Below are positions 1,094 to 26,111 of a stretch of 64,000 nucleotides of DNA, in pieces. Made by a program: the position numbers and the translations under genes. Position 1 is the first letter of the stretch; every line of letters begins with the position of its first letter. Under the pieces are notes generated by a model. That model saw nothing but the letters and a program-made list of their open reading frames with translations. It ran no database searches and was not told the DNA's origin. Source of the stretch: a virus; IMG/VR virus record IMGVR_UViG_3300020429_000529, positions 326,762 to 390,761 of that record. One strand, given 5' to 3'.

Positions 1094-1162
1094 GAGGATG
1101 TAGCTTAACTGGTAGAGCGCCCAAATTAATGGGTTGTGCAGGTTCGAAGCCCGCCGTCCTCT
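1094..1162 (+). tRNA. tRNA-like gene, only 69 nt, anticodon loop appears to be 6 nt (AAUUAA); possibly degenerate
   Basis: Acceptor gaggatg/cgtcctc, D-stem gctt/gagc, T-arm gcaggTTCGAAGcccgc; 4-bp anticodon stem with a 6-nt loop. Confidence 0.4.
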
Positions 1163-1408
1163 TTTGAACATCAAGGACAACCGAGATCGACACAAAGAAC
1201 TGGTCCTCAAGAAATTCAGAGGTCCAGGTCTGACAGATGACGAGCAGAAGGAGTTGGTTGAGATCGAGACGGCGATCAGAGAAGCGGTCATGAAGGAGTT
1301 TCCGCCGCTCAAAGATGCCGAACAGAATCCCAATCAGACGGGCCACTGACAAAAATCTGTCCCTTCTGCGTGGAATCTTGGCCGATTTGGAAGAAAAAGA
1401 CGAAGAGA

Positions 1409-1439
1409 GGGAGGAAGTGACGCCGCAAGGCGGTATACT
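1409..1439 (+). repeat. conserved 31-nt element GGGAGGAAGTGACGCCGCAAGGCGGTATACT, copy 1
   Basis: 30/31 identity with 11180-11210; GGAGG plus a GCAA-loop hairpin plus TATACT; about 220 nt upstream of the terminator at 1658. Confidence 0.6.
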
Positions 1440-1657
1440 CACCCACCAAGAGCCGCGAGTTGCGGCGGAGATTGAAGCAATGATGTCAGTAAGGTCCAAA
1501 GCCAGAACCAACGTCAACCAGCGCAAGCAGGCATGGCGTCAGTTCGCGTATGCGGGTTTTGCAGCCCGTAATGCGAAGGGGCTTGGACCTCGCGGACCTC
1601 AACAGGAGATCGAGAACATCTGATCTTCTGAAGACAGGTCAAGCAGAGAGGATTCCA

Positions 1658-1686
1658 AGCCCCGAGCAGAAGCTCGGGGTTTTTTC
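1658..1686 (+). terminator. rho-independent terminator
   Basis: gccccgagcagaagctcgggg hairpin followed by TTTTTT. Confidence 0.7.
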
Positions 1687-1696
1687 GTGCAAATAT

Positions 1697-1769
1697 GGGG
1701 CTATAGCGTAACTGGTAACGCGTCTCGATGGCATTGAGAAGAGTAGGGGTTCGAGTCCCCTTAGCTCCA
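1697..1769 (+). tRNA. tRNA-Ala(GGC)
   Basis: Full cloverleaf, G3:U70 pair, anticodon loop aUGGCAu, T-loop TTCGAGT. Confidence 0.85.
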
Positions 1770-1812
1770 CTTATGAGAGTTCGCAAGTTCTCTCAAGAAC
1801 GTAGTTCGCTTC

Positions 1813-1836
1813 GTTCGACTTCTTTGACAAGTGAAT
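1813..1836 (+). promoter_or_regulatory. recurrent motif TTCGACTTCTTTGACAAGTGAATA (contains TTGACA), copy 1
   Basis: 23/24 identical to 11544-11567; related CTCTTTGAC(A/T)A motifs at 5246, 26157 and 34750; 10 nt upstream of tRNA-Phe. Confidence 0.4.
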
Positions 1837-1845
1837 ACCTGCTAT

Positions 1846-1918
1846 TGGGTCAGTAGCTCAGTTGGTAGAGCAGTGGATTGAAGATCCGCGTGTCGTTGGT
1901 TCGAATCCGACCTGGCCC
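1846..1918 (+). tRNA. tRNA-Phe(GAA)
   Basis: gggtcag/ctggccc acceptor, tagctcagttggtagagca D-arm, anticodon loop uUGAAGa. Confidence 0.85.
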
Positions 1919-1925
1919 ACTTTAT

Positions 1926-1998
1926 AGCCTCGTAGCATAATTGGTAATGCAGGAGCCTCTGAAGCTCTGTATTGGGGGTTCGAGTCCCTCCGAGGCTG
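1926..1998 (+). tRNA. tRNA-Gln(CUG)
   Basis: agcctcg/cgaggct acceptor, anticodon stem ggagc/gctct, loop cUCUGaa. Confidence 0.8.
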
Positions 1999-2091
1999 TT
2001 TGATCTGGCGTGGGAATAGACGACCGAAACAGGTAATGCTGAACTGGTCACCCTTTGCGTATGGGCGAGTAGTCCTGAGAGTCAGATCGTT

Positions 2092-2165
2092 ATCCCGGTA
2101 GCTCAACTGGACAGAGTACCTGACTACGAATCAGGCGGTTGGGGGTTCGAATCCCTCTCGGGATG
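2092..2165 (+). tRNA. tRNA-Arg(ACG)
   Basis: atcccgg/tcgggat acceptor, anticodon stem cctga/tcagg, loop cUACGaa, T-loop TTCGAAT. Confidence 0.8.
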
Positions 2166-2203
2166 TTAGGCAAAGGTCGAAGGTTCGATTCCTTCTGCAT
2201 CAT
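2166..2203 (+). other. tRNA 3' half fragment (anticodon-loop UUA + 3' anticodon stem ggcaa + T-arm + 3' acceptor), matches the 5' half at 2239-2272
   Basis: ggcaa pairs with ttgcc of the downstream 5' half; T-arm gaaggTTCGATTccttc; acceptor tgcatca. Confidence 0.45.
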
Positions 2204-2238
2204 CACGGATCCTGAGACTGTTCGCGCAAACAGTCAAG

Positions 2239-2272
2239 AGATGTATAGCTCAATGGTGGAGCATTGCCATTT
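2239..2272 (+). other. tRNA 5' half fragment (acceptor agatgta, D-arm, 5' anticodon stem ttgcc, loop AUUU)
   Basis: tagctcaatggtggagca D-arm; ends exactly where tRNA-Ala(CGC) begins. Confidence 0.45.
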
Positions 2273-2345
2273 GGGGACGCATGTTCCAACGGCGGCGAAC
2301 TTCCCTCGCAAGGAAGTTGGGAGGGTTCGATTCCCTTCGTCTCCA
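2273..2345 (+). tRNA. tRNA-Ala(CGC)
   Basis: ggggacg/cgtctcc acceptor with G3:U70, anticodon stem cttcc/ggaag with loop cUCGCaa, T-arm gagggTTCGATTccctt; weak G-U rich D-stem. Confidence 0.6.
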
Positions 2346-2351
2346 CTTTAC

Positions 2352-2424
2352 GGGGTCGTAGCTCAACTGGTAGAGCATCTGCTTTGCAAGCAGAGGGTTA
2401 GGGGTTCGAGTCCCCTCGATTCCA
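2352..2424 (+). tRNA. tRNA-Ala(UGC)
   Basis: ggggtcg/cgattcc acceptor with G3:U70, anticodon stem tctgc/gcaga, loop uUUGCaa. Confidence 0.8.
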
Positions 2425-2546
2425 CTTACGGTATTGCCAACACGCCATTGCAGGTCTTTCCATGGACTGCAAGAAAGAGGGCTGGTTCCCTGAACCAATA
2501 CAGTCATTTGTTGAAGGCCTCTTCAAATGACTCAATCAGGATTTTC

Positions 2547-2626
2547 GGGTAGGCTATCCTGGGAGAGACAAGCTGGCTGTAAACCAGTGGCATTTTGCTG
2601 AGCAGGTTCGAATCCTGTCCTACCCA
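2547..2626 (+). tRNA. tRNA-Tyr(GUA), class II with long variable arm
   Basis: gggtagg/cctaccc acceptor, anticodon arm gctgg-CUGUAAA-ccagt (loop identical to E. coli Tyr), T-arm gcaggTTCGAATcctgt; D-arm unusual. Confidence 0.6.
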
Positions 2627-2637
2627 CTTTCTTTGTT

Positions 2638-2722
2638 AGGCGATAATGGGCAGTAGGTTTGCCCCGAGGGGAGTCATGACCCCAGTGTCAAAACGAAACA
2701 GGTTCGATTCCTGTATTGCCTG
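2638..2722 (+). tRNA. tRNA-like gene, 85 nt, anticodon arm not resolvable (gggg-AGUCAUGA-cccc)
   Basis: aggcgat/attgcct acceptor, gggc/gccc D-stem, acaggTTCGATTcctgt T-arm. Confidence 0.4.
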
Positions 2723-2726
2723 CCTT

Positions 2727-2811
2727 GGGAGATGATCTTGCCGGGTGACTGTAAATCACTTGACTTGTATATGGCAAGTGGCGTCAAGGGGTTCGATTCC
2801 TCCATCTCTCA
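2727..2811 (+). tRNA. tRNA-Tyr(GUA)-like with a shortened D region (possible pseudogene)
   Basis: gggagat/atctctc acceptor, ggtga-CUGUAAA-tcact anticodon arm, long variable hairpin, T-arm aggggTTCGATTcctcc. Confidence 0.45.
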
Positions 2812-3110
2812 TTCGTTTGTTTCAGGAGGGGATGCAATGCTTGAGTTCAAGAAAACAGCAGAATGCTCCCTCAATCAGGAAGGCATCAATCAGGTCAAAC
2901 AACTCAGCACCGATATGATGCTGGGCAATGTAGTCGAACGAATCGTTCGTATCGGATCGCATGACTACAACCTGAAGAGGGAAGGAAACAAAGTCGTCGT
3001 CTATCGTATGAAGATGACTCTCGAACAGAACGACCGTAATGTTCATGGCATGAACAGGAGAAAGTAATGACTGCTCTACGAAAACACAAACCGACCTGCA
3101 AGACAACCTT

Positions 3111-3194
3111 GGGTCGGTGACTGAGAGGCCGAAAGTATCCGCCTTTTAAGCGGGCAGCGAAAGCTCATCGCGGGTTCGAATCCTGCCCGGCCCA
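3111..3194 (+). tRNA. class II-like tRNA with anticodon UUU; variable arm carries a GCGAAAGC hairpin
   Basis: gggtcgg/ccggccc acceptor, 3-bp D-stem with 11-nt loop, anticodon arm tccgc-CUUUUAA-gcggg, variable cagcgaaagctcatc, T-arm gcgggTTCGAATcctgc. Confidence 0.5.
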
Positions 3195-3201
3195 CTTCAC
3201 T

Positions 3202-3274
3202 GGGGGCGTAGCTCAGTTGGTAGAGCATCGGACTTTTAATCCGAGGCGCGCAGGTTCGAGTCCTGTCGCCCTCA
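3202..3274 (+). tRNA. tRNA-Lys(UUU)
   Basis: gggggcg/cgccctc acceptor, anticodon arm tcgga-CUUUUAA-tccga, canonical class I structure. Confidence 0.85.
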
Positions 3275-3278
3275 TTTA

Positions 3279-3351
3279 GGAACGATGGTGTAGTTGGTCT
3301 GCACGCTTGTCTGAAGAACAAGAGGTCACGGCTCGAAACCGTGTCGTTCCA
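3279..3351 (+). tRNA. tRNA-Phe(GAA), atypical T-loop CTCGAAA
   Basis: ggaacga/tcgttcc acceptor, anticodon arm cttgt-CUGAAGA-acaag. Confidence 0.7.
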
Positions 3352-3358
3352 TTTTCAT

Positions 3359-3430
3359 ACCTCGGTAGCTCAATTGGCAGAGCAGCAGACTCTTAATCTG
3401 TGGGTTGTGGGTTCGACTCCCTCCCGGGGT
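3359..3430 (+). tRNA. tRNA-Lys(CUU)
   Basis: acctcgg/ccggggt acceptor, tagctcaattggcagagca D-arm, anticodon arm gcaga-CUCUUAA-tctgt. Confidence 0.8.
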
Positions 3431-3437
3431 ACTTTGA

Positions 3438-3509
3438 CGGGTCCGAAGCATAGGAGGAGATGCACCTGGCTCTTAACCAGGAGAAGAGGGTTCGAATCCC
3501 TACGGACTC
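3438..3509 (+). tRNA. tRNA-Lys(CUU), second copy
   Basis: gggtccg/cggactc acceptor, anticodon arm cctgg-CUCUUAA-ccagg, T-loop TTCGAAT. Confidence 0.75.
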
Positions 3510-3600
3510 ATTTGAAACAGGTCGAAAGCAATCAGTTAACAAGTTCAAATCCTGTATTCCCCACTTCAACAACTCTTGGGGAATTGCCTATTGGAGGCAC
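3510..3600 (+). other. degenerate tRNA-like region (T-arm-like acaagTTCAAATcctgt + attcccc upstream of a GGGGAAT acceptor-like 5' piece)
   Basis: The pieces resemble tRNA parts in the wrong order; no complete cloverleaf found. Confidence 0.25.
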
Positions 3601-3628
3601 CTGAAAGCACCAACATACCTGTTTTGTT

Positions 3629-3702
3629 TCCTCAGTAGCTCAGTTGGTAGTAGCGAATGGCTGTTAACCATTAGGTCGCTGGTTCGAGCCCAGCCTGAGG
3701 AG
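3629..3702 (+). tRNA. tRNA-Asn(GUU)
   Basis: tcctcag/ctgagga acceptor, anticodon arm aatgg-CUGUUAA-ccatt, T-arm gctggTTCGAGCccagc. Confidence 0.85.
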
Positions 3703-3832
3703 TTTAGAGAACGAGTCGAAGAGGCTTCGGTTATCACTTTGATTTTGATTCAAAATGCCCAAAGCGCCTGCCTGTAAAGCAGGAAATGCTGGGGGTAAAA
3801 ACACCGATCTTCACCCCATATTCGTTCTTGTT

Positions 3833-3920
3833 TCTGAGGTAGCCGAGTGGTAGCAGGCGTCTGACTGTTAATCAGAAGGGAGTCACATCCCCGTCGTTGG
3901 TTCGAATCCAACCCTCAGAG
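3833..3920 (+). tRNA. Ser-like class II tRNA body with anticodon GUU (Asn codons)
   Basis: tctgagg/cctcaga acceptor, Ser-type D-arm gcc-gagtggtagca-ggc, anticodon arm tctga-CUGUUAA-tcaga, 19-nt variable arm, T-arm gttggTTCGAATccaac. Confidence 0.6.
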
Positions 3921-4042: not shown

Positions 4043-5122
4043 ATGAAGAAGGTCACGGTCAAGCCAACGCTTGTAGCATCTGCTGGATACGCAAAACCAG
4101 TAAACGTTGGTCAGAATGACGATATATTGAGCGAAAAAGAACAGCAGATCAAGAATCTTGCTGATCGACTCATCGCCGCAGTTCCTTGCGCTTCATCGAA
4201 CTGGGCAGAGGACAACCCTCACCATATGGGCTACGGACTCAAGTCCGAGGGCGGCTGGATGAGGTTCATGCAAGGTCACATCTGGCGCTGCGTTAGCGAG
4301 CTTGGATACAGACGAGTCTTCTTCCATCTTCCGTTCGGCAAAACAACGGGTCAGTCTCCTTACGAAGTTCAGAAGCGAGCTTTTGAAGCTGAGTATGGGC
4401 AGCCTTACTCAGAATGGACAGACGAGCAGAAAGCCGTTCTCGAAGACATGGACCTCAAGAGATGGCATATGAGTATCGATCATATGCACGACCTCGAACG
4501 AACAGGTAACGAGTTTATCGCAACTGGCTTCTATGAGGCGCTCGATTGGATTCATGAACAGGATCCGGGCGTTGAGATCATCTGCTACATCGGTTCGTAT
4601 GATTCGGAAGACAAGGGTCGCATCGACAACGGCGAGTACGGCGCAGTCTTCTTTGATTGGTGGAGATCAGTTTATCCGTTGATCGATCGAGACTGGGTTT
4701 CGATCGTCTACGATGCTGCGGTCGGTAAAGAACCTGACCACATCAACGCAAGGCTTGCTCAGCTAACGCAAGACGCAAAGAACCGTCAGCCTGGACGCTT
4801 TGTAGGGGTTGAGGCTCGCATCCAGAAGGGTCGTCCTTGGCCGAACGATTTGGGTATGACATGCGTTGCTTGGGCGGCGACATGGAGACGACAGGCTCAT
4901 TCGGGGAACATTCCTCGGGAGTTCTTGACTGTTCCGCCGATCGTTGTTTACGACGGGCACGCAAAGAGTCAGGTCAACAACAGCTACAATGGCGACTGGT
5001 TCGCATACATGGCTGAAGACTTGGCGCAAAACTGTCAGATCGCTCCTTCTCCGCTTGGAGGCGAGTTTGCGACCCTGACAACGACAGAGGTAGCCGCCAG
5101 ATTGTTAGATCTGGTTTCGTAG
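4043..5122 (+). CDS. hypothetical protein, paralog family A (with 19743, 38401, 39861)
   Basis: GGAGAGGA RBS before the ATG at 4043; shares RVFFHLPFG / IICYIGSYD-type motifs with three other ORFs in the window. Confidence 0.65.
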   Translation: MKKVTVKPTLVASAGYAKPVNVGQNDDILSEKEQQIKNLADRLIAAVPCASSNWAEDNPHHMGYGLKSEGGWMRFMQGHIWRCVSELGYRRVFFHLPFGKTTGQSPYEVQKRAFEAEYGQPYSEWTDEQKAVLEDMDLKRWHMSIDHMHDLERTGNEFIATGFYEALDWIHEQDPGVEIICYIGSYDSEDKGRIDNGEYGAVFFDWWRSVYPLIDRDWVSIVYDAAVGKEPDHINARLAQLTQDAKNRQPGRFVGVEARIQKGRPWPNDLGMTCVAWAATWRRQAHSGNIPREFLTVPPIVVYDGHAKSQVNNSYNGDWFAYMAEDLAQNCQIAPSPLGGEFATLTTTEVAARLLDLVS

Positions 5123-5388: not shown

Positions 5389-5460
5389 GACTCGGTAGCT
5401 CAGCGGTAGAGCGGTCGCCTGTTAAGCGACTTGTCGAGGGTTCGATCCCCTCCCGAGTCT
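5389..5460 (+). tRNA. tRNA-Asn(GUU), second copy
   Basis: gactcgg/ccgagtc acceptor, anticodon arm gtcgc-CUGUUAA-gcgac. Confidence 0.85.
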
Positions 5461-5487
5461 TTTTGCTTCCTTGGGAAGGGTTGCAGT

Positions 5488-5560
5488 GCGCCGATAGCTC
5501 AATTGGTAGAGTCCTGGATTCCAAATCCAGTTGTTGGGAGTTCGAATCTCTCTCGGCGTG
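5488..5560 (+). tRNA. tRNA-Trp(CCA)
   Basis: gcgccga/tcggcgt acceptor, anticodon arm ctgga-UUCCAAA-tccag. Confidence 0.85.
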
Positions 5561-5561
5561 T

Positions 5562-5632
5562 TGAGGAGTCGTCTAAAGGTAGGACGCTGGATTTTGGTTC
5601 CGGAGATGCTGGTTCGAGTCCAGCCTCCTCAG
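5562..5632 (+). tRNA. tRNA-Gln(UUG)
   Basis: tgaggag/ctcctca acceptor, anticodon arm ctgga-UUUUGGU-tccgg, T-arm gctggTTCGAGTccagc. Confidence 0.75.
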
Positions 5633-5637
5633 TTCTT

Positions 5638-5709
5638 TGAAAGGTCGTCTAATTGGTAGGACGCTGGGTTCTGATCCCGGAAATGCTGGTTCGAGTCCAG
5701 CCCTTTCAG
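5638..5709 (+). tRNA. tRNA-Gln(CUG)
   Basis: tgaaagg/cctttca acceptor, anticodon arm ctggg-UUCUGAU-cccgg. Confidence 0.8.
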
Positions 5710-5713
5710 TTTC

Positions 5714-5815
5714 GGTTACAACTTGCAGAGGTCTGGTACATCTGCGGCGCGTCGCGATTCCGTAAGCTCAGCGCGAGGGTCATTCGGCCCCTCAAGTCGG
5801 TTCGAATCCGAGACG
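5714..5815 (+). other. elongated tRNA-like element (acceptor ggttaca/cgtaacc, T-arm tcggTTCGAATccga) with about 30 extra nt
   Basis: Ends pair but the internal cloverleaf is not resolvable; possible intron-containing or decayed tRNA. Confidence 0.3.
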
Positions 5816-5861
5816 TAACCAAGCAGTATCGAGGGACGCTTCGATGTCTGCTTTTTGATTG

Positions 5862-5983
5862 CCCTGTGGCGGAATGGTAGACGCACGGAAGACATTCCGA
5901 TTCGCCGTTCGAGTCGGCAAAGTAGGCGGATGCGCTGAAATCAAAGGTAGAATGTAGGTTCGAATCCTACCAGGGCAACTTGT
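5862..5983 (+). other. elongated tRNA-like element with Leu-type D-arm (tggcggaatggtagacgc) and two T-arm-like hairpins
   Basis: Acceptor tgccctg/cagggca pairs across 122 nt; internal gccgTTCGAGTcggc and gtaggTTCGAATcctac. Confidence 0.3.
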
Positions 5984-5990
5984 TCGAGTA

Positions 5991-6067
5991 GCGGCGGAAG
6001 CTGCATTGGTTCAGCGGTCGGATTCCAAATCCGATGTCTATGTGGGGTTCGAGTCCTCCCCGTCGCG
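5991..6067 (+). tRNA. tRNA-Trp(CCA), second copy, 8-nt variable region
   Basis: gcggcgg/ccgtcgc acceptor, anticodon arm tcgga-UUCCAAA-tccga. Confidence 0.6.
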
Positions 6068-6074
6068 TTTTGTT

Positions 6075-6146
6075 TGCCCCATGGTGTAACTGGCAACACG
6101 ACTGATTCTGATTCAGTTATTCCTGGTTCAAATCCAGGTGGGGTAG
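6075..6146 (+). tRNA. tRNA-Gln(CUG)
   Basis: tgcccca/tggggta acceptor, anticodon arm actga-UUCUGAU-tcagt, T-arm cctggTTCAAATccagg. Confidence 0.8.
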
Positions 6147-6150
6147 TTTA

Positions 6151-6287
6151 GTCAACGTGGTGTAACTGGCAACACACTTAAACGCCTTTCGCCATACCAT
6201 ACCTGTCTCGGGATCCCCGACAGGTCGAAGGATGGAAGGTTAACCTCTTGCAAAGGAGAGCTTCAGGTTCGAATCCTGACGTTGGCA
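6151..6287 (+). tRNA. insert-containing tRNA-like gene (137 nt); anticodon arm atypical (ctct-UUGCAAAGG-agag)
   Basis: Acceptor gtcaacg/cgttggc, D-arm same as the tRNA at 6075, then an insert of about 65 nt sharing aacgcctttcgccataccata...gtcgaaggatggaaggttaac with 6291-6421, T-arm tcaggTTCGAATcctga. Confidence 0.45.
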
Positions 6288-6290
6288 TTT

Positions 6291-6421
6291 CTCAGCGTGG
6301 TGTAATGGTAGCACAGTAACAAACGCCTTTCGCCATACCATATTTCGTAAGAAGTCGAAGGATGGAAGGTTAACATTCCTCTGTAAAAGGAAAGGTTCGG
6401 GTTCGAATCCCGACGCTGGGT
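6291..6421 (+). tRNA. insert-containing tRNA-Tyr(GUA)-like gene (131 nt)
   Basis: Acceptor ctcagcg/cgctggg, D-arm, about 55-nt insert paralogous to the one in 6151-6287, anticodon arm ttcct-CUGUAAA-aggaa, T-arm tcgggTTCGAATcccga. Confidence 0.5.
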
Positions 6422-6425
6422 TTTT

Positions 6426-6537
6426 GGTGCCGCACGAGGAATGATCCCAGAAGCGCGCGATCCCAAGATGAAGGAGAGGCCTCTCTTGATTCGAGGGTGA
6501 TCATGGGATGGAGGTTCGATGCCTCCCGGCGCTGTTT
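6426..6537 (+). other. elongated tRNA-like element (acceptor ggtgccg/cggcgct, T-arm ggaggTTCGATGcctcc; possible anticodon loop UUGAUUC)
   Basis: 112 nt with an internal palindrome gagaggcctctc; structure only partly resolvable. Confidence 0.3.
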
Positions 6538-6540
6538 GAT

Positions 6541-19742: not shown

Positions 19743-20705
19743 ATGCTTGGGGAAAATGTTCGAAAGATTCCTTTCCACCCTATACCTACAAACCCCATCG
19801 CAACAAACGCCAACACCAAAAACCTGTTCGATAGCGATCCGACAGCCGAGAAAAAGCCAACCCTTAGAAAGACAACAGAAGGCAAACAGCCCTTTGTTGC
19901 GTATTGGCTCATCGGAGGAGCCTCAAACAATGCCAGCCTGAGGCGCATTGGTTGGGGAGTCGCAACAAGAGGTTGGAACGAGTTCATACAAGAGAAAATC
20001 GTTCCTCAAATTCAGGTCGGAGTTCGCAGATTCCATCTTCACAACCCATTTGGCCTTGACGCATCAGGCCCTATGCCAGCCGATCAATACATCAAAGCTG
20101 TTGAGCAGGGACTTGATCTTGTCTATGGCAACTTTGTTGAAGCGTGGAAGCCAATCGCCGACAATCCGAACTTTGAAGTTACAGCCTACCTTGGCAAGTT
20201 GCCTGATTCGGCTATCTTCAATGAACTGATCGGGTTGAAAGATTCATCAGGCTGGATGAAGAGACTGACCGAATCATATCAGGCTGTCATGGAAGCGGGA
20301 ATGTCTATTGGCTTTGACGCTATGGCAATTGCAGAAGACAGCGATGAATCGTATCTCGCTTACGACTTGATTGACAAGCTTTGTCAGCTAACGGGTCGCA
20401 GAACGTACATCGAGGCGACTCCGAAGAAGAGAGATGAGCATCTGACGGGCAGAAACATCTTTGTCATTGATAGCACATGGAGAACTCGCCTGACTCTCCC
20501 CGCTTTTGCGCATGACGAGGATCTATCAGGCGAGATCGTAAGACTTGCTGTCAAGCCGAGATCAGAAACAAGGACTACGCTTGAGTGGTGTCTTGGTATC
20601 GGAGAAGAGATTCTTGCCGATGGTCACACCTTCTGCCCCTCTCAAGGGTGGCAGCTTTCGATGGATGAGTTGGCGCATCTGCTTCGGATGTTGAGGATTC
20701 TTTAG
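19743..20705 (+). CDS. hypothetical protein, paralog family A
   Basis: GGAGGA RBS; RRFHLHNPFGLDASGPM / VTAYLGKLPD motifs shared with 4043, 38401 and 39861. Confidence 0.7.
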   Translation: MLGENVRKIPFHPIPTNPIATNANTKNLFDSDPTAEKKPTLRKTTEGKQPFVAYWLIGGASNNASLRRIGWGVATRGWNEFIQEKIVPQIQVGVRRFHLHNPFGLDASGPMPADQYIKAVEQGLDLVYGNFVEAWKPIADNPNFEVTAYLGKLPDSAIFNELIGLKDSSGWMKRLTESYQAVMEAGMSIGFDAMAIAEDSDESYLAYDLIDKLCQLTGRRTYIEATPKKRDEHLTGRNIFVIDSTWRTRLTLPAFAHDEDLSGEIVRLAVKPRSETRTTLEWCLGIGEEILADGHTFCPSQGWQLSMDELAHLLRMLRIL

Positions 20706-21046
20706 TCAAGGTCAGGCCAAGTTTGAAACGGCAAATCATGTTCGGTGCGAAGTTCGTTGATCCAGTCTCTATGAGTGCCGGTGATTCGCCAGAACTTGCG
20801 TAGCTGAGCATCTTGCGATGCGTCTTTTTCTGTGTTGTCTACAATGGCATCGAGCGTTTGTTGCATGAGGGCCATGTCGGTACGAAGATCAGCCGCATCA
20901 TCGTTGAGGTCGTTGATTCTGGTGAGGGACCATGTAAAGAGTCCGCTGAGAATGAGAATAAGCAGCCCGAGCAAGGACTGGATGACTTGATCTGGTTTCA
21001 TTGCCATTTGAGAGACGCCTCCGTATGAGTTATTGGGATCACTCAT
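20702..21046 (-). CDS. hypothetical membrane/coiled-coil protein
   Basis: 114-aa minus ORF with one hydrophobic segment; weak RBS. Confidence 0.4.
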   Translation of the reverse strand: MSDPNNSYGGVSQMAMKPDQVIQSLLGLLILILSGLFTWSLTRINDLNDDAADLRTDMALMQQTLDAIVDNTEKDASQDAQLRKFWRITGTHRDWINELRTEHDLPFQTWPDLD

Positions 21047-21081
21047 ACTTGGGCAGGAAAACTGAGAATCCCTTCTGATAA

Positions 21082-21106
21082 GGCCGGGTGCCCGAGCGGT
21101 TAGGGG
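21082..21106 (+). other. tRNA 5' fragment (acceptor ggccggg + Tyr-type D-arm cccgagcggttagggg)
   Basis: Acceptor strand pairs with the 3' fragment at 21974-21980 (cccggtc); no anticodon or T-arm follows. Confidence 0.45.
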
Positions 21107-21181
21107 TTGGATGAAGGAATGATAGTCAACTAATCGAATACCTATAAATCGTCGATATACACGATAGATAGGAGTTCGATT

Positions 21182-21859
21182 ATGAGACAGAAAACCAAGG
21201 AGCGAAGTCAGGCTATCGATCTTCGCAAGCAGGGTAAATCGCTATCAGAGATTCAAGAAAAGCTTGGCGTTGCTCGCAGCACCGTTAGCGTTTGGGTTAG
21301 AGATGTTGAGCTTTCTGATGAACAGAGAAACAGGCTCGATAGCAGAAAACCAGCAAAGCCCGAGGCTTTTTATCAGCAAAGATCTGAAGCATATAGAGCC
21401 AAGCGACAAGAGTATCAACAGCGAGGTAGGGATCTTGCTCGCAAATTTGCATCTGATCGATTGTTCATAGCAGGATGCATGCTTTATTGGGCAGAAGGGT
21501 CAAAGGCAAAGAACTCCGTCATATTCTGTAACTCAGATGCAGACATGATGAGAATGTTCATTCGGTTTCTCTTGAAATACTTCGATGTCACAAAACATGA
21601 CATTCGAGCAAGATGCAACTTCTATACGGATATTCATTCTCAGGATGAGGTAGAGTCTTATTGGCAATCGAACCTTTCATTGCCTGAAAGTTCTTTCACC
21701 AAAAGCGTTGTTGATTACAACAATCGATACAGCAAGAGACAGGGCAAGCTTGAGTACGGAACCTGTTCAATTTCAATACATAGTACCGAGCTTGTTCAGA
21801 TTATCTTTGGTTCTATTTCTGAGATCGCTGAAATAGAAGGCGAGAAATGGTTAGACTGA
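21182..21859 (+). CDS. HTH + LAGLIDADG-like homing endonuclease (tentative)
   Basis: N-terminal helix-turn-helix (SLSEIQEKLGVARSTVSVW); IAGCMLYWAEGSK resembles a single LAGLIDADG motif; lies between the two tRNA fragments. Confidence 0.45.
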   Translation: MRQKTKERSQAIDLRKQGKSLSEIQEKLGVARSTVSVWVRDVELSDEQRNRLDSRKPAKPEAFYQQRSEAYRAKRQEYQQRGRDLARKFASDRLFIAGCMLYWAEGSKAKNSVIFCNSDADMMRMFIRFLLKYFDVTKHDIRARCNFYTDIHSQDEVESYWQSNLSLPESSFTKSVVDYNNRYSKRQGKLEYGTCSISIHSTELVQIIFGSISEIAEIEGEKWLD

Positions 21860-21860
21860 T

Positions 21861-21945
21861 GCCCGTATGGCCGAGTGGCGAAGGCGGCGGATTGCAAATC
21901 CGCTGAGGCTTGACCTCCACGTTGGTTCGAATCCAACTGCGGGCT
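21861..21945 (+). tRNA. Ser-like class II tRNA body with anticodon GCA (Cys codons)
   Basis: gcccgta/tgcgggc acceptor, Ser-type D-arm ggccgagtggcgaaggc, anticodon arm gcgga-UUGCAAA-tccgc, 17-nt variable arm, T-arm gttggTTCGAATccaac. Confidence 0.6.
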
Positions 21946-21981
21946 TTGAAGACTACGAGGGTTCGAATCCCTCCCCGGTCT
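21946..21981 (+). other. tRNA 3' fragment (T-arm gagggTTCGAATccctc + acceptor cccggtc)
   Basis: Pairs with the 5' fragment at 21082; no anticodon arm upstream. Confidence 0.45.
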
Positions 21982-21988
21982 TTTGAAT

Positions 21989-22062
21989 GGCCTCTGGTCC
22001 GCTTGGAGCGGGACTCGGTTGCAACCCGAGTTGAATATCTGGTTCGAATCCAGCAGGGGTCT
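21989..22062 (+). tRNA. tRNA-Cys(GCA)
   Basis: ggcctct/aggggtc acceptor, anticodon arm ctcgg-UUGCAAC-ccgag, T-loop TTCGAAT. Confidence 0.7.
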
Positions 22063-22064
22063 TT

Positions 22065-22340
22065 ATGAGCGAAGTTCCAGAAGAATATCGTATCTCGCCT
22101 GAAAAGGCGGAAGAGATGGTCGATGACGCCATCCGAGAGGGCGACCTTGAGGGCTTTTACGAGGCAGTTTGCCCATGCGGAGAGATTTGCGGCATGCATT
22201 TTCACTCTGTCATTGGCGGCGAGCCTCCGAAGCCGAGCAAATACATCGCTTGCCCTTCTTGTCATCGGGTAGGCTTCAAGGATGGCATCGAGTGGAAGTA
22301 TGTCCCTCCGATCTTGGAGCAGGACGATGAGGTTGCATGA
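22065..22340 (+). CDS. Cys-rich hypothetical protein
   Basis: CPCGEICGMH...CPSCH motifs; starts 3 nt after tRNA-Cys. Confidence 0.5.
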   Translation: MSEVPEEYRISPEKAEEMVDDAIREGDLEGFYEAVCPCGEICGMHFHSVIGGEPPKPSKYIACPSCHRVGFKDGIEWKYVPPILEQDDEVA

Positions 22341-22615
22341 ACAGCGTCATCTACGAGACCTCTGAGGGCTACAGGACGCACGTTGGCATTCAGGACGGCA
22401 CAGAGTATGGCGGTCCCTTTCCGACGCTCACAGAGGCTCAGGACGACTGCTGGAAGACAGAGAAGATCATGAACGGAAACGACATCGACGTTGATGCGAT
22501 TCCGATTATGCGCGGGTCTCTTGGAGATAAAGGCCCCGACAGAATCCCGGGAGAACTGTCGGACGCCAAACGAGAGGGTTCGAATCCCTTGACCCGCTTT
22601 ATGAGACCGATTTGA
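22337..22615 (+). CDS. hypothetical protein (3' end contains a tRNA-like T-arm/acceptor sequence)
   Basis: ATGA overlap; the C-terminal EGSNPLTRF is coded by gagggTTCGAATcccttgacccgc, which pairs with gcgggtc at 22512. Confidence 0.3.
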   Translation: MNSVIYETSEGYRTHVGIQDGTEYGGPFPTLTEAQDDCWKTEKIMNGNDIDVDAIPIMRGSLGDKGPDRIPGELSDAKREGSNPLTRFMRPI

Positions 22616-22616
22616 T

Positions 22617-22688
22617 GTGGGTGTAGCTCAGCGGTAGAGCGCCAGCTTGCCAAGTTGGATGTCGAGGGTTCAAATCCCTTTACCCACT
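22617..22688 (+). tRNA. tRNA-Gly(GCC), second copy
   Basis: gtgggtg/tacccac acceptor, anticodon arm ccagc-UUGCCAA-gttgg, T-arm gagggTTCAAATccctt. Confidence 0.8.
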
Positions 22689-22692
22689 TTTC

Positions 22693-23091
22693 ATGGACAA
22701 ATGCGAATGTCAAGAACCTGATGCTTGCTACTATCCTGCAATCAACGAGGATGGTTGGAAGTGTTTGAACTGCATGAAAACCTTGGGTTTTCGACCAGAC
22801 CTTGATCGAGAGTTCATTCACGAGAAGGTCGAGGGCATCATGCAGGATATGCAGATGTCTAAGCTTGCATACTTCTCAAACAGTACCGAAGGGCATATGA
22901 TCGCAGCGCAGGTTGCGAGCGAATGTTCTCGTCAGAATCTCTACGATCAGGCGACGATCATTCTTGAGATCATGCGGGTCATTCAGCCAGATAAATCCCT
23001 GTTTTGGCAGTCAAAGGCCTCTGGCGCTATGGCGGAAACTTTAGATGTTGCAAAACGGGAGGAAGTTTGCGCTGATTGGTGGGAGAACTGA
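22693..23091 (+). CDS. hypothetical Cys-rich protein
   Basis: 132 aa; CECQEPDACYYP...CLNC. Confidence 0.55.
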   Translation: MDKCECQEPDACYYPAINEDGWKCLNCMKTLGFRPDLDREFIHEKVEGIMQDMQMSKLAYFSNSTEGHMIAAQVASECSRQNLYDQATIILEIMRVIQPDKSLFWQSKASGAMAETLDVAKREEVCADWWEN

Positions 23092-23118
23092 TTAGCCCTC
23101 AAAATAAGGAGCTAATCA

Positions 23119-23907
23119 ATGAGAGTATCAAATGGATTAGTAGTCCTGTTCGATGAAAACGGACAGGACATCGGCGGCGTTGGAGATCCAATGAATCTCA
23201 CGCCCTCTGGTTCGGCCTTTCTAACGGACGGTCCCGCCACCAAAGTCATCAGCGCTTGTAAGGCGACGAATGAGGTTACGATCGAGGCTTGGGCCACTCC
23301 GGTAAACCTGACTGACTCTGGCCCCGCTCGTATCATCACGTTGTCCAAAGATGCAGGCGCTCGAAACTTCACGATAGGTCAAGAAGCAACCGTTTATGAA
23401 TGGCGTCTGCGAACGCAGGATACGCAGTCTAACGGACAGCCGTATGTAGAGCTTGGAGCCGTTCGTCTTCAGACTCAGCATCTCGTGTTGGTCAACGACA
23501 ACAATGCAAATGTCATTCTGTACGTTGATGGTCAAGAGATTCATCGAGAGATTCGTCCCGGCGGTCTTTCAACATGGGACAATAGTTACCGACTGGCGAT
23601 AGGCGATGAGATTTCTCGCGACAGACCTTGGGCGGGCACGTTTCATCTCGGAGGCGTTTACAACAGAGCGCTGACTGAGGCTGAAGTTCAGCAGAACTTT
23701 GCTGCGGGGCCCGATGGCGAACAAGAACCGCCCGAGCCGCCAGAGCCGCCTCATGACTATCTGGTACAGAATGTTGGAGCAGAGTGTTCTCTTTACATGC
23801 CGTCGTCAGCCAGCGGCGCAAGACGTAGAACGGCAAAAGGAAGAACCTACCCGGCGTATGCTGATAGCTGTATCTATTCGTATGGGACGCTATACGGAAG
23901 ATCGTAA
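23119..23907 (+). CDS. LamG/concanavalin A-like lectin domain protein
   Basis: AAGGAG RBS; LVLVNDNNANVILYVDGQEI...WAGTFHLGGVYNRALTEAEVQQNF is a LamG-type signature. Confidence 0.7.
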   Translation: MRVSNGLVVLFDENGQDIGGVGDPMNLTPSGSAFLTDGPATKVISACKATNEVTIEAWATPVNLTDSGPARIITLSKDAGARNFTIGQEATVYEWRLRTQDTQSNGQPYVELGAVRLQTQHLVLVNDNNANVILYVDGQEIHREIRPGGLSTWDNSYRLAIGDEISRDRPWAGTFHLGGVYNRALTEAEVQQNFAAGPDGEQEPPEPPEPPHDYLVQNVGAECSLYMPSSASGARRRTAKGRTYPAYADSCIYSYGTLYGRS

Positions 23908-23942
23908 AGGATTCGGGCTTTACTGCTTTGTATAGAGAGCGA

Positions 23943-24101
23943 TGAAGATCGCTGTCACTCTACAACTTCAGGCTTGCATCGAGTTCGCTCACGAAGACGA
24001 ATACTCAGAGACCCTGTTCCACATGATACAGCATCTTGAGGAACACGGGTTTTCTGTTAATATCGTTTCCGAAGAGAAGGTCGAGTCTCAGGACTCGTAA
24101 C
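23943..24101 (+). CDS. small hypothetical protein (52 aa)
   Basis: Short ORF in an otherwise noncoding gap; weak RBS. Confidence 0.25.
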
Positions 24102-24297
24102 TCCCTGCTTGCAATCTGAGACTGCAATTCAGGCATTGCTGACCGCTATCGGTCTTTTCTCTATTCTACCAGAATAGTTTCAGAAAAAAGACGAGGATGT
24201 ATCCTTGTCGCCCTGAATAGGTTGGATGGTAACTCGCTGGTAGCGTGCATATCCATTCGGCCAAAGAAGCAACATATGCTTTTCAGGGAGATCGTAC

Positions 24298-25320
24298 ATG
24301 GCTAATCCATCATTCGATCAAATTTCTGCGCTTCTGCAGAACATCAGTATACTGTCAGGAACATCGTCGTCGCTTCATTCTGAGCTTTCATCCATAGCTT
24401 CGGAACTTAAAGGGCGAGAAGATAGTCGTCAGCCTCGTATCGGAAAACCATACAAGTCAGACATTGATTTGACGAGCGCTATTGAGAAGGCCCAATCGTT
24501 GCTAATCGAATCTGGTAGTCTTAGTAGCAACTTTGTAGATCTCATCAAGATCATTCAAGATAGGCCTGATGAGCCAGTAGTTTCAGGTTGGACACTTGAA
24601 CCGTCAACAAGAGTTTGGATGTCGGTCAACATGCCGTTGTATTACGGGGACCGACCGGGCTTTCCGTTGCTCAGAGAGCATATCGATCTTGCGAACCAAC
24701 TGAATGCAGGTTTGTTGCTCAACAATCTGTATGGGCAAAGAACTGGTCATCATTACGATGCGGGGTGGCCCGAGAGCAAGATCGAAGAGATCGAAGCCGA
24801 GTTTTCTCGGTACTCTGGCGCAGCAATACAGCTTTACTTGTGCATCAAAGAACGTCTCGAAGACGGATCGCTGATTGACGTAGATGATGATCGAGTAAGG
24901 GATCACTGGATCCCGTTGGTTGAGCAGCTACGGGGCTGGATAGGAGAGGAGCCCGCTATCGATATTGGAATCGATGTTGGTTCTGCGAATCCTTCGAGAT
25001 GGAAAGATGTGCATGAGAGATTGCTTGCTCCGAACGGTGTCATGAGAACTGTTCTTGAGGCATCTGTAAGAGACAGCAACGGATTGCCTGCTCTCGACGT
25101 TCCTCAAGAGTTCCTTCATCAGCACATATTGGCGAGATGGGGTTCCGTTGATCCGTTGCCAACTCTTGAGACGCCTGGTTCGGTATTGCTGTGGATGACG
25201 AATCATGCATGGCAGAATGAGGCCAACAAGCAGGGCGTCATCGAGCAGTCTTGGGAAAAGGGATATGCTCTTGCTCTCGAAGCGGAAGATCTTGAGCAGT
25301 TCTCTCACCTGTTGATTTGA
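24298..25320 (+). CDS. hypothetical protein
   Basis: GGGAGA RBS; 340 aa. Confidence 0.65.
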   Translation: MANPSFDQISALLQNISILSGTSSSLHSELSSIASELKGREDSRQPRIGKPYKSDIDLTSAIEKAQSLLIESGSLSSNFVDLIKIIQDRPDEPVVSGWTLEPSTRVWMSVNMPLYYGDRPGFPLLREHIDLANQLNAGLLLNNLYGQRTGHHYDAGWPESKIEEIEAEFSRYSGAAIQLYLCIKERLEDGSLIDVDDDRVRDHWIPLVEQLRGWIGEEPAIDIGIDVGSANPSRWKDVHERLLAPNGVMRTVLEASVRDSNGLPALDVPQEFLHQHILARWGSVDPLPTLETPGSVLLWMTNHAWQNEANKQGVIEQSWEKGYALALEAEDLEQFSHLLI

Positions 25321-25411
25321 GTTTCGGAGCCTCAAGGCGGAAACCTTTGGGCTCCATTGCGGTGTATTGGTAGATGCCAGGTGGCTTTTCTGCCGATACA
25401 ATGCGCATCGA

Positions 25412-25482
25412 GCGAGATTGATGTAGTGGTAACATGCCTGCCTTCCAAGCAGATCTCAGGGGTTCGAGTCCCCTATCTCGCA
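25412..25482 (+). tRNA. tRNA-Gly(UCC)
   Basis: gcgagat/atctcgc acceptor, anticodon arm ctgc-CUUCCAA-gcag, T-arm aggggTTCGAGTcccct. Confidence 0.75.
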
Positions 25483-25484
25483 TT

Positions 25485-25904
25485 ATGACAAAACCAATGA
25501 AATGCATCATCTGCGAAAAAGAACTGGAACCAGTTTCAGAGACTTCTCATATGCAGCCTTACGGAGGGGGAGAGGTCAAGGTCTCTTTCCACTATGGGAG
25601 CCGTTTCGATTGGCTCGGATCTCAGAGAGGAATCGAAGACCCCAACGCTCCCGTTCAACCTGATCCTATCGCAAAGATCTTCGGCAAGAAGAGCGACAAG
25701 ATGGTTCGGGTTATATCCGAAGAGCATCCGGGCACAACCGAGCCTGTTGATGGCGCTCTCAATCATGAGAAGCGGGCCATTCAACTGACAAGCTGCTCTC
25801 ACATCTACGGCGTCATGTGCGATGACTGTTTCGAGGCGAAGGCTCATCTTTTCCAGGGTTTCGTCAGACCGCCAACTCCCAAACTCAAGTTGACCGTCGA
25901 ATGA
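25485..25904 (+). CDS. hypothetical Cys-containing protein
   Basis: First ATG after the tRNA within ORF 25434-25904. Confidence 0.45.
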   Translation: MTKPMKCIICEKELEPVSETSHMQPYGGGEVKVSFHYGSRFDWLGSQRGIEDPNAPVQPDPIAKIFGKKSDKMVRVISEEHPGTTEPVDGALNHEKRAIQLTSCSHIYGVMCDDCFEAKAHLFQGFVRPPTPKLKLTVE

Positions 25905-26050
25905 CAGAAGAACAGCTACATGACAAGATCAAAGAATGGCATAACTCCAATTCAGAGTTGACCATTTATGAGTATCTTGGTTGGACCCGAGAAGAGTATG
26001 CTCGTTGGATAGAAACCTGCGAGATGCCAGATCGTATTACGCCTCCTTAG
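25901..26050 (+). CDS. small hypothetical protein (49 aa)
   Basis: ATGA overlap with the upstream stop; its TAG stop is the tRNA's U8-A9-G10. Confidence 0.35.
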   Translation: MTEEQLHDKIKEWHNSNSELTIYEYLGWTREEYARWIETCEMPDRITPP

Positions 26051-26111
26051 TGTCAACGCAGCACGCTCCCCTTGTAAGGAAGTAGTGTCGGTTCAAGTCC
26101 GGCAGGAGGCT
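26041..26111 (+). tRNA. tRNA, anticodon tentatively UGU (loop CUUGUAA; anticodon stem has a mismatch)
   Basis: gcctcct/aggaggc acceptor, T-arm gtcggTTCAAGTccggc. Confidence 0.55.

Follow-up and report, generated by a model that had tools for sequence, protein, structure and literature searches.

The 64,000-nt window analysed here (positions 326,762 to 390,761 of the IMG/VR record IMGVR_UViG_3300020429_000529; coordinates below are those of the window unless another record is named) contains a long array of transfer RNA (tRNA) genes and, embedded among them, a 248-nt RNA that resembles a miniature form of the RNA of bacterial ribonuclease P (RNase P). We consider it reasonably likely that the window derives from a huge phage of ~0.5 Mb, that the region represents the tRNA island of this phage, and that the miniature RNase P RNA embedded in it is encoded by the phage. 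Related RNAs, both miniature and full-size, are found in the tRNA arrays of other large viral contigs, and on balance our analysis tends to favor the view that large phages may encode their own RNase P ribozyme in their tRNA arrays, in forms that extend from full length down to RNAs of ~205-260 nt that consist of nearly the catalytic domain only.

The RNA was originally predicted to be an rnpB-like element, and this assignment is borne out by the Rfam model of the bacterial class A RNase P RNA (RF00010), which matches 11599-11840 from end to end (model positions 1-367) with 55.5 bits and an E value of 1.2e-14. Since the gathering threshold of RF00010 is 100 bits, the RNA is missed by routine annotation; Rfam at gathering thresholds reports nothing at 11594-11841. 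The RNA, its paired regions (P), joining segments (J) and conserved regions (CR) are as follows, and J5/15 is kept as well:

11594-11841, + strand: miniature RNase P RNA, 248 nt, matching RF00010 (bacterial class A)
11594-11604/11831-11841 plus 11607-09/11827-29: P1
11612-17/11799-804: P2
11619-28/11644-52: P3 (extended)
11652-66: CR-I
11657-65/11816-23: P4 pseudoknot
11666-69/11730-33: P5
11737-40/11781-84: P15
11746-49/11772-75: P16
11751-54/11764-67: P17
11777-79: GGU of L15
11789-99: J15/2
11810-24: CR-V

In a base-by-base check, P1, P2, P3, P4, P5, P15, P16 and P17 all pair without a mismatch. The P4 pseudoknot consists of eight standard pairs and a bulged U, and two of its pairs are changed on both sides relative to the consensus: CR-I (GAGGAAGGUCGGGGC) and CR-V (ACAGAACCCCGCCUA) have two non-consensus positions each, and these pair with each other. 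The specificity domain is reduced to a remnant of 60 nt (11670-11729) between the two strands of P5, and P18 is absent. In the RF00010 alignment, the 110 model positions of the specificity domain (P7-P14, CR-II and CR-III) correspond to ~25 nt, and the 23 positions of P18 to 1 nt. The sequence UUUUU lies between the end of the RNA and the tRNA-Gly gene at 11847. The window RNA thus has the architecture and the conservation of a complete RNase P catalytic domain (P1-P5, P15-P17 and CR-I/IV/V).

Relatives of this RNA were sought with a pattern that combines CR-I and CR-V at a 'mini' spacing of 125-187 nt, the normal spacing being ~250-280 nt. Two contigs in IMG/VR match this pattern: L011 (171 kb), where a 221-nt RNA of 71.7 bits lies flush between two tRNA-Arg genes in an array of 10 tRNAs, and L033 (203 kb), where the mini RNA scores 84.9 bits and 29 tRNAs occur in 7.5 kb together with a transfer-messenger RNA (tmRNA). 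A metagenome scan at the same spacing gave 16 matches, eight of them with tRNA genes on the same short contig. The mini architecture occurs on metagenome contigs L014, L016, L020, L022, L023, L026 and others, of which L023 (14 tRNAs in 2.3 kb) and L026 (20 tRNAs in 5.3 kb) are rich in tRNAs. A blastn search of GenBank phages identified a further mini RNA, of 72 bits in Rfam, in the cultured Microbacterium phage A3Wally (MZ150783.1, record positions ~93,855-94,065), where it fills an unannotated gap, flush between the tRNA-Pro genes 162 and 163. Two genes for HNH endonucleases and one for endonuclease VII interrupt the A3Wally array (L034, record 88859-99061), and RNA ligase and ADP-ribosyltransferase genes come after it.

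The mini RNAs are 204-262 nt long, lack P18 and have a stand-in of 48-85 nt for the specificity domain. Mini forms other than the window RNA score 50-85 bits in Rfam, and the best family for the window RNA and seven other mini RNAs is RF00010, not an archaeal one. Two divergent RNAs in the GenBank phage records LR756502 and LR756511, which were detected as partial blastn matches to the window RNA, are probable members of the same family, to judge from their Rfam scores (32 bits in LR756502, a weak match to RNaseP_arch, and 14 bits in LR756511) and from the pairing of P4, checked by eye and by script, in which four to five of the eight pairs are non-consensus on both sides. Both RNAs lie outside tRNA arrays, with 0-1 tRNA within 6 kb.

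The conservation of the fold was assessed by covariation. A MAFFT alignment of the mini RNAs was structurally inadequate and was replaced by a hand-derived structure of the A3Wally type and a covariance model (R1), with which 13 array-associated RNAs were aligned and P4 was added. Across these 13 RNAs, 95.9% of the cells form a standard pair, compared to 75.1% in shuffles (0 of 500 were as high), and 31 of the 48 pairs are changed on both sides, compared to 19.8 in shuffles; the covariation score is 0.486, compared to 0.05-0.07 when the 3' partners are slid. Double-sided changes occur in every helix from P1 to P17. Four P4 sequences are present across 15 RNAs, all versions being paired apart from one A-A, and the bulged U, GAGGAA, ACAGAA and the GGU of L15 are invariant in these 15. 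Where the near-identical RNAs of L011, L026 and A3Wally differ from each other in P1 and P2, the substitutions are paired.

Thirteen of the 21 metagenome and genome pattern matches (L012, L015, L017-L019, L021, L025, L028-L032 and others) have no tRNA neighbours and were used as contrasts only; they contain runs of N or CR-II-like motifs, and look like cellular rnpB genes with masked or missing parts. One of them, at L031:2051-2252 (a Candidatus Shapirobacteria metagenome-assembled genome, JAUWLS010000009.1), is an RNase P RNA-like sequence of ~200 nt, with no tRNAs nearby, that scores 56 bits to R1 and has CR-II/CR-III-like motifs in a very short specificity domain. This RNA, from a bacterium of the candidate phyla radiation, may be a reduced cellular RNase P RNA.

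Full-size RNase P RNAs are found in the same setting. The pattern with larger spacing matches 54 more IMG/VR contigs, and 25 of these 54 matches lie inside same-strand tRNA arrays as predicted by ARAGORN, with 3-17 tRNAs within 1.5 kb and the nearest one usually 16-45 nt away; the contigs involved include ones of 463, 456, 369, 205, 190, 171, 170 and 162 kb. Fifteen of 16 array loci scanned with Rfam contain an RF00010 match above the gathering threshold (155-280 bits, 288-375 nt), often flush with tRNAs. On L056, for instance, a tRNA at 727-800 is followed by the RNase P RNA at 800-1149 and a second tRNA at 1151-1224. Most of the other larger-spacing matches, which are on short contigs with no nearby tRNA, look like host rnpB genes at prophage or contig edges. 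The 25 array-embedded matches indicate that an RNase P RNA gene within a tRNA array is recurrent among large phages, and, as far as the sequences go, the mini form looks like the reduced end of a size series that starts from full-size phage copies.

Several observations weigh against a functional RNase P RNA of phage origin. The score of the window RNA is below the RF00010 gathering threshold and amounts to 19 bits with R1, which models the subfamily of the A3Wally type. Shuffled sequences have minimum free energies as good as that of the window RNA (z = 0.02), so that the case rests on the covariance model and the comparison with relatives. The covariation alignment was itself fitted to the structure by the covariance model, which inflates the percentage paired, although the count of double-sided changes is not thereby explained. 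No homologue of RnpA, the protein partner of the RNA, was found in the window with Pfam, and a tblastn search with E. coli RnpA against a collection of 50,697 phage records gave a dozen records, mostly host-like or contaminant, none of which was A3Wally or an LR7565xx record. A bacterial RNase P RNA without a specificity domain is a poor catalyst in the absence of protein or high salt. Also, the GGU of L15 normally pairs with an encoded 3' CCA, and CCA is missing from the tRNAs of most mini-RNA arrays despite the conserved GGU; in L023, 14 of 14 tRNAs encode CCA.

These points leave some room for a role other than catalysis. A decoy or regulatory function is conceivable, in which the RNase P-like RNA would sequester host RnpA or some other binding factor or toxin, and would thereby throttle host tRNA maturation or neutralise a defence. 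Such a role would suit the loss of the specificity domain and P18, which serve substrate recognition and folding, the negative outcome of the searches for a phage RnpA, and the retention of the P2-P3-P4 region, which in RNase P RNA contacts RnpA. An intact catalytic core, however, would be superfluous in a decoy, yet 15 divergent RNAs show no variation in the bulged U of P4, GAGGAA, ACAGAA, J5/15, a J18/2-like segment and the GGU of L15, and compensatory changes preserve P4. In addition, full-size and apparently complete RNase P RNAs hold the same position in other phage arrays. We regard the decoy as improbable.

The second alternative concerns the contig rather than the RNA. Exact protein matches place the window at positions 273,022-337,021 of a 498,610-bp metagenomic contig (ENA ERZ17089788, NODE_1289088), a size well within the range of huge or jumbo phages (>200 kb), and the same genome was also assembled at >200 kb in 11 sample blocks. 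Our scans covered 84 kb of this contig, namely the window and its 10-kb flanks. The original prediction was of a translation toolkit of the kind carried by huge phages or a large mobile element, and suggested a look for phage structural and terminase genes. No capsid, portal, terminase or tail gene was found in the 84 kb with Pfam and PHROG (essentially all window open reading frames (ORFs), plus the flanks), which counts against a phage; phage-family proteins are present, among them the following:

35734-37398, - strand: AAA ATPase (phrog_10440), full-length match to a phage-only family, E 9e-106
16325-17068, + strand: SerRS core (phrog_16140), profile positions 148-397 of 426, E 5.6e-69
14502-15041, + strand: 179-aa protein of a phage-only family (phrog_21276), E 5.6e-53
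61782-62384: full-length match to a phage-only family (phrog_11575), E 4e-46
51787-52419: full-length match to a phage-only family (phrog_547), E 2e-45

In tblastn searches of the phage collection, the window proteins tested have matches exclusively in jumbo or huge phages. The best matches of 14502-15041 are in the jumbo phages XacN1 (56% identity), CM1/RAS14 and Xoo-sp13, the product of 33775-34596 matches the same phages, and the 258-aa protein of 27196-27972 has homologues solely in LR756502, LR756511 and LR756504. Near-identical DNA was not found in this collection by megablast. Proteins associated with the array are also encoded in the tRNA arrays of other IMG/VR contigs (171-463 kb), and the neighbours of the window array are ORFans and phage-family proteins. 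Nearly all window genes share one strand, and small ORFans are numerous among them.

The missing structural genes would also fit a megaplasmid-like element, or a segment of a bacterial chromosome with a tRNA array. Chromosomal tRNA arrays have been described for some cyanobacteria, mycobacteria and Firmicutes. Cell-like genes are also present (a PAS histidine kinase with two response regulators, a porin, PEP-CTERM-type tails, sigma factors, flotillin and a phosphoribosyl pyrophosphate (PRPP) synthetase), and some large putative plasmids bear similar translation genes (Al-Shayeb et al., PMC7162821). Against this stand the full-length matches to phage-only PHROGs, the tblastn matches confined to jumbo and huge phages, the array genes shared with IMG/VR viral contigs, the near-uniform gene strand and the many small ORFans. 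The tRNA set is redundant and serves none of five amino acids, which would be intolerable in the sole set of a free-living cell. Neither rRNA genes nor ribosomal-protein genes, a ribosomal operon or housekeeping or core metabolic synteny were seen in the 84 kb, so the features of a chromosome segment that would have contradicted the predicted toolkit were not encountered. The contig size, the phage-only PHROGs, the jumbo-phage matches and the shared array genes support the prediction, and the gene content suggests that the contig very probably belongs to a huge phage; because hallmark genes and genome ends were not seen, a megaplasmid-like element keeps a slim chance.

Least probable, and in our view very unlikely, is that the RNA is a decaying remnant of a host rnpB captured with tRNA genes, a hitch-hiking pseudogene without present function: its score under the Rfam threshold, its large internal deletions relative to type A and the recombination-prone nature of tRNA arrays (homing endonucleases are interspersed in that of A3Wally) would fit such a history, but unrelated contigs have the same deletions and have kept the same helices, compensatory change is seen in 31 of 48 pairs with 95.9% of cells paired where a pseudogene would gain unpaired changes, and even the near-identical RNAs of L011, L026 and A3Wally differ by paired P1/P2 substitutions.

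If the RNA is indeed a phage-encoded RNase P RNA, the following role can be envisaged. The island would be transcribed as long mRNA-tRNA precursors, in which the 5' ends of the tRNAs would be cut by RNase P, a U at position -1 being favoured (34 of the 47 tRNAs in the window have it). The 3' ends would be formed by an RNase Z-type cut and CCA addition, a route suggested by the fact that CCA is encoded by none of the 47 tRNA genes and that every one of them is followed by a U-rich trailer (TTT, CTT, TTA, TTC or TTG). The mini RNA would be freed from the array precursor as its flanking tRNAs are processed, and in the window the cleavage at tRNA-Gly 11847 would leave it with a UUUUU tail. Since no phage rnpA was found, the RNA would presumably pair with host RnpA, and the additional RNase P activity would help to process the large load of pre-tRNAs made by the phage. 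The loss of the specificity domain possibly relaxes substrate checking (T-loop). More speculatively, RNase P cleavage could strip the stop codon from eight coding sequences (CDSs) that end inside a tRNA, and the resulting non-stop mRNAs could become substrates of the phage tmRNA, which would couple tmRNA to precursor processing.

RNase P is a universal and essential ribozyme, and to our knowledge it has been assumed to be supplied by the host in phage infection. The mini RNAs share P1-P5, the P4 pseudoknot with its bulged U, CR-I, a CR-IV-like segment, CR-V, J5/15, P15-P17 and the GGU of L15 with type A RNase P RNA (RF00010; E. coli M1 RNA). They differ from it in length (204-262 nt versus ~350-400), in the replacement of P7-P14 with CR-II/CR-III by 48-85 nt, in the absence of P18 and in a score below the gathering threshold; moreover, they are encoded by phages inside tRNA arrays, whereas type A is a lone chromosomal gene. 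Another natural RNA in which the specificity domain is almost entirely lost is the type T RNase P RNA of Pyrobaculum and relatives. Catalytic activity is reported for it (Lai et al. 2010, as cited in PMC7191817), and it offers a precedent for the activity of such a form. Type T, however, is archaeal, chromosomal and the sole cellular RNase P RNA, while the phage RNAs appear to derive from bacterial type A (RF00010) and would act beside the host enzyme.

A parallel of a different kind is provided by the theta ribozymes, which resemble the hepatitis delta virus (HDV) ribozyme, adjoin phage tRNAs and are proposed to process precursors in suppressor-tRNA phages (Kienbeck et al. 2024, PMC10879173); RNase P is treated as a host enzyme in that study. 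In both cases, a phage-encoded ribozyme, here a putative one, lies directly beside phage tRNA genes and suppressor tRNAs are present. Theta ribozymes are small and self-cleaving and act in cis on the 3' trailer, whereas the RNase P RNA described here would act in trans at the 5' end, and could thus be the 5'-end counterpart of theta ribozymes at phage tRNA 3' ends.

Huge phages with genomes of several hundred kb, large tRNA complements, tmRNA and aminoacyl-tRNA synthetase (aaRS) genes are already known (Al-Shayeb et al. 2020, PMC7162821), and we infer that the GenBank records LR756500-LR756511 belong to them. The window genome is similar in its size, its many tRNAs, its tmRNA and its aaRS genes; its major vault protein (MVP)-like and 258-aa proteins have homologues in the phage collection solely among the LR756500-LR756511 records, and the divergent RNase P-like RNAs of LR756502 and LR756511 are the most similar to the window RNA. 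It differs in that protein identity is 34-40% and that the LR RNAs (14-32 bits) are outside tRNA arrays. The jumbo phage XacN1 of Xanthomonas (384,670 bp), which has a very large tRNA complement, shares the small proteins of 14502-15041 and 33775-34596; it has no blastn match to the window RNA or the L033 mini RNA, and no RNase P RNA search directed at XacN1 was made.

In targeted literature searches, with most subscription journals outside coverage, no description of a phage-encoded RNase P RNA was found. RNase P is not mentioned by Al-Shayeb et al. 2020 (PMC7162821), an RNase P RNA in phage is not mentioned in a 224-genome jumbo-phage comparison or a 2026 jumbo-phage review, and phage, virus or viral do not occur in the rnpB-finder paper (PMC7191817). 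What we rate as new is the genomic setting of a bacterial-type RNase P RNA, together with its reduced architecture and its score below the curated family threshold, which makes the mini forms invisible to routine annotation. Activity of the mini or full-size phage RNAs would make them the first RNase P to be encoded by a virus, and the mini form would be a natural minimal RNase P RNA of the bacterial type; phages would then take over tRNA 5' maturation besides tRNA supply, and tRNA 5' processing would be added to the translation steps controlled by huge phages. The mini RNAs are a natural experiment in paring down a bacterial RNase P RNA (no P18, a specificity stand-in of 48-85 nt), and bear on how substrate recognition and catalysis are divided between the two domains. 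The question is directly testable in A3Wally, which is cultured and genetically tractable (host Microbacterium foliorum).

The tRNA array itself extends from 1094 to 26111. ARAGORN predicts 46 tRNA genes and one tmRNA in the whole window, all on the + strand. Rfam at gathering thresholds (RF00005) confirms 42 of the tRNAs and adds one at 15800-15874 that is missed by ARAGORN; its anticodon loop CUGUGAA, read by eye, makes it a tRNA-His GUG. The total is 47 in the window and 45 in 1094-26111 (44 from ARAGORN and one from Rfam), fewer than the ~55 originally predicted, although all are on the + strand as stated. Relaxed settings yield only marginal or partial tRNA-like matches (2638-2724, 16231-16303 and 6368-6413) and three 'intron' calls. 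The predicted layout holds, with 24 tRNAs packed in 1.1-6.9 kb (15 in 1094-3920, block A, with RF00005 scores of 33-73 bits, and nine in 5389-6861, block B), and 21, from 7936 to 26111, interleaved with small ORFs out to 26.1 kb. The tRNA genes, all on the + strand, are:

1094-1162: tRNA with a six-base anticodon loop (block A begins)
1697-1769: Ala GGC
1847-1919: Phe
1926-1998: Gln CTG
2092-2165: Arg ACG
2273-2345: Ala CGC
2352-2424: Ala TGC
2547-2627: Tyr
3111-3194: Lys TTT, long variable arm
3202-3274: Lys TTT
3279-3351: Phe
3359-3431: Lys CTT
3439-3510: Lys CTT
3629-3702: Asn
3833-3920: Asn, long variable arm
5389-5460: Asn (block B begins)
5488-5560: Trp
5562-5632: Gln TTG
5638-5709: Gln CTG
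5991-6067: Trp
6075-6146: Gln CTG
6541-6617: Val GAC
6624-6699: Arg GCG
6788-6861: Val TAC
7936-8017: Arg TCG, long arm (interleaved tRNAs begin)
8867-8957: Arg TCT, long arm
10817-10891: Arg CCT
11435-11518: Gly TCC, long arm
11847-11919: Gly GCC
12642-12712: Thr GGT
14000-14072: Thr CGT
14077-14149: Thr TGT
15726-15797: Met/CAT
15800-15874: His GTG
15880-15951: Gln TTG
17099-17170: Thr CGT
17690-17780: Ser GGA
18124-18217: Ser GCT
18740-18825: Ser TGA
19571-19665: Ser CGA
21861-21945: Cys, long arm
21989-22062: Cys
22617-22688: Gly GCC
25412-25482: Gly TCC
26041-26111: Thr TGT

The 45 array tRNAs serve 15 amino acids (Ala 3, Phe 2, Gln 5, Arg 5, Tyr 1, Lys 4, Asn 3, Trp 2, Val 2, Gly 4, Thr 5, CAU 1, His 1, Ser 4 and Cys 2, plus the one with the six-base anticodon loop), and Leu, Ile, Pro, Asp and Glu isoacceptors are missing, as originally noted. 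The window tRNA genes are not recent duplicates, the best pairwise identity being 82% and most pairs falling at 63-79%. The tRNA-like gene at 1094-1162 (42 bits) has the anticodon loop AAUUAA, from which ARAGORN derives a two-base 'anticodon', and is either defective or an oddity of the frameshift or ochre type. Long variable arms in bacteria are normally limited to Leu, Ser and Tyr tRNAs; in six array tRNAs (Lys, Asn, two Arg, Gly and Cys) the variable arm is long and forms a hairpin, which in two or three cases has a GAAA-type loop, and the long-arm Lys, Asn, Gly and Cys tRNAs each have an isoacceptor of normal length elsewhere in the array. Introns in these six were ruled out, since the extra bases form the long variable arms and the calls of the ARAGORN intron mode are implausible.

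Two further tRNA genes, outside the array, are of the amber suppressor type:

52817-52888, + strand: tRNA-CUA (ARAGORN; RF00005, 69.4 bits)
56907-56982, + strand: second tRNA-CUA (ARAGORN and Rfam); the upstream HD_4 gene ends at its U8-A9-G10 TAG

Neither is similar to the window tRNA-Gln genes; both have a G1-C72 pair and are closest to tRNA-Lys (72-74%). TAG is the stop of 19 of the 96 predicted window genes. Recoding of TAG in the window was rejected: no long ORF is rescued by TAG readthrough, and TAG is an ordinary stop. The two tRNA-CUA genes may serve recoded late genes elsewhere on the contig.

The packing of CDSs against tRNAs is tight, which argues for co-transcription. Five CDSs (10632-10826, 13218-14009, 25901-26050, 52536-52826 and 56323-56916) have as their stop codon the TAG at positions 8-10 of a tRNA, three more (17362-17712, 17797-18129 and 19247-19579) overlap the 5' end of a tRNA, and five stop within 8 nt of one. 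The junction at U8-A9-G10 was originally ascribed to many CDSs; it does occur, and 'several' describes its frequency better. As TAG is present at positions 8-10 in 23 of the 47 tRNAs, an incoming ORF that is in frame stops there, and the exact position is not special. The sigma-70 promoter consensus is not enriched in the array (10 found, 12.2 expected), and terminator-like hairpins are present at about twice the expected frequency. The strongest one on the + strand is:

11386-11415, + strand: terminator-like hairpin with a 13-bp stem and a T run, directly upstream of the tRNA-Gly/RNase P RNA/tRNA-Gly module

The remainder of the predicted toolkit was largely recovered, and includes:

34768-35121, + strand: tmRNA (ssrA), tag ANSNTLRMAA; ARAGORN, and RF00023 with 119 bits (gathering threshold 47)
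1-330, + strand: 3' end of the CysRS gene (cysS), which starts upstream of the window and is 478 aa in full (PF01406, tRNA-synt_1e; L003:8507-9943)
16325-17068, + strand: SerRS catalytic core, 247 aa, without the N-terminal tRNA-binding arm (PF00587, E 6.5e-26)
7125-7550, + strand: core fragment of a class II aaRS, GlyRS-like, 141 aa, motif 2 region (PF00587, E 5e-5, below the curated cutoff)
6883-7041, + strand: 52-aa ORF; ORFs with 45% identity to it directly precede the GlyRS-like gene in the tRNA arrays of both L042 and L054
54237-54920, + strand: SpoU-type RNA methyltransferase (PF00588, E 2e-9)
56323-56916, + strand: HD_4 (RelA/SpoT-type HD) phosphohydrolase (PF13328, E 2.8e-15; phrog_990, E 3.6e-28)

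A predicted PTH2-like gene was not recovered, either among the predicted window ORFs (E<=0.01) or in ten small ORFs rescanned at E<=1, and an SmpB gene was not found in the window with Pfam. The truncated SerRS aligns to residues ~149-400 of solved SerRS (E 1e-55), and its gene precedes the first of the four tRNA-Ser genes by ~0.6 kb, an interval that holds a tRNA-Thr and two small ORFs. The coiled-coil arm of SerRS binds the long variable arm of tRNA-Ser, so that the arm-less protein, to judge from its sequence, is probably unable to aminoacylate tRNA alone; association with subunits of the host SerRS is conceivable, as is a different role. The best PDB match of the GlyRS-like fragment is to residues 194-313 of a glycine-tRNA ligase (E 4e-4). 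Its homologues in the tRNA arrays of the IMG/VR contigs L042 (463 kb) and L054 (171 kb) are 59-61% identical over the full length, which indicates a conserved small protein rather than debris. Together with the 52-aa ORF it forms a conserved two-gene module (window 6883-7550, L042:2736-3428 and L054:1623-2315), located 0.6-4 kb from the RNase P RNA gene in all three genomes. This toolkit of 45 tRNAs, tmRNA and aaRS pieces is a further example of the kind known from huge phages, and the tmRNA, CysRS, arm-less SerRS, GlyRS-like fragment, SpoU and HD proteins may keep up or redirect translation during infection.

Other genes in the region are more varied. The 10-kb flanks encode a sigma factor, flotillin, UvdE, a HisRS-like fragment, a second sigma factor and PRPP synthetase. 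Cell-like genes in the window occur at 27969-30311, 41200-42423, 58550-59329 and 62394-62684, and comprise the PAS histidine kinase with two response regulators, a phosphate-porin-like protein and two PEP-CTERM-type C-terminal tails; the kinase, porin and tails hint at a Gram-negative host with an exosortase. Five ORFan proteins of ~300-460 aa (4043-5122, 19743-20705, 24298-25320 and 38401-39780 on the + strand, and 39861-40754 on the - strand) share the motifs WG..TRG and HLP.G..GPM, have no Pfam, PHROG or phage tblastn match and, by these motifs, look like one paralogous family dispersed through the region.

The window also encodes a homologue of MVP (30797-33544, + strand, 915 aa; MVP shoulder, 1.7e-25, and Vault repeats), which in the phage collection is matched solely in the huge-phage records LR756500, LR756501 and LR756503 (36-38% identity, tblastn). 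A protein-pattern search of IMG/VR gave no MVP relatives, and vaults are not mentioned in the two jumbo-phage overviews (the 224-genome comparison and the 2026 review). In eukaryotic vaults MVP is paired with vPARP, and a WGR and PARP domain protein (44635-46278, + strand) is encoded 11 kb from the MVP homologue.

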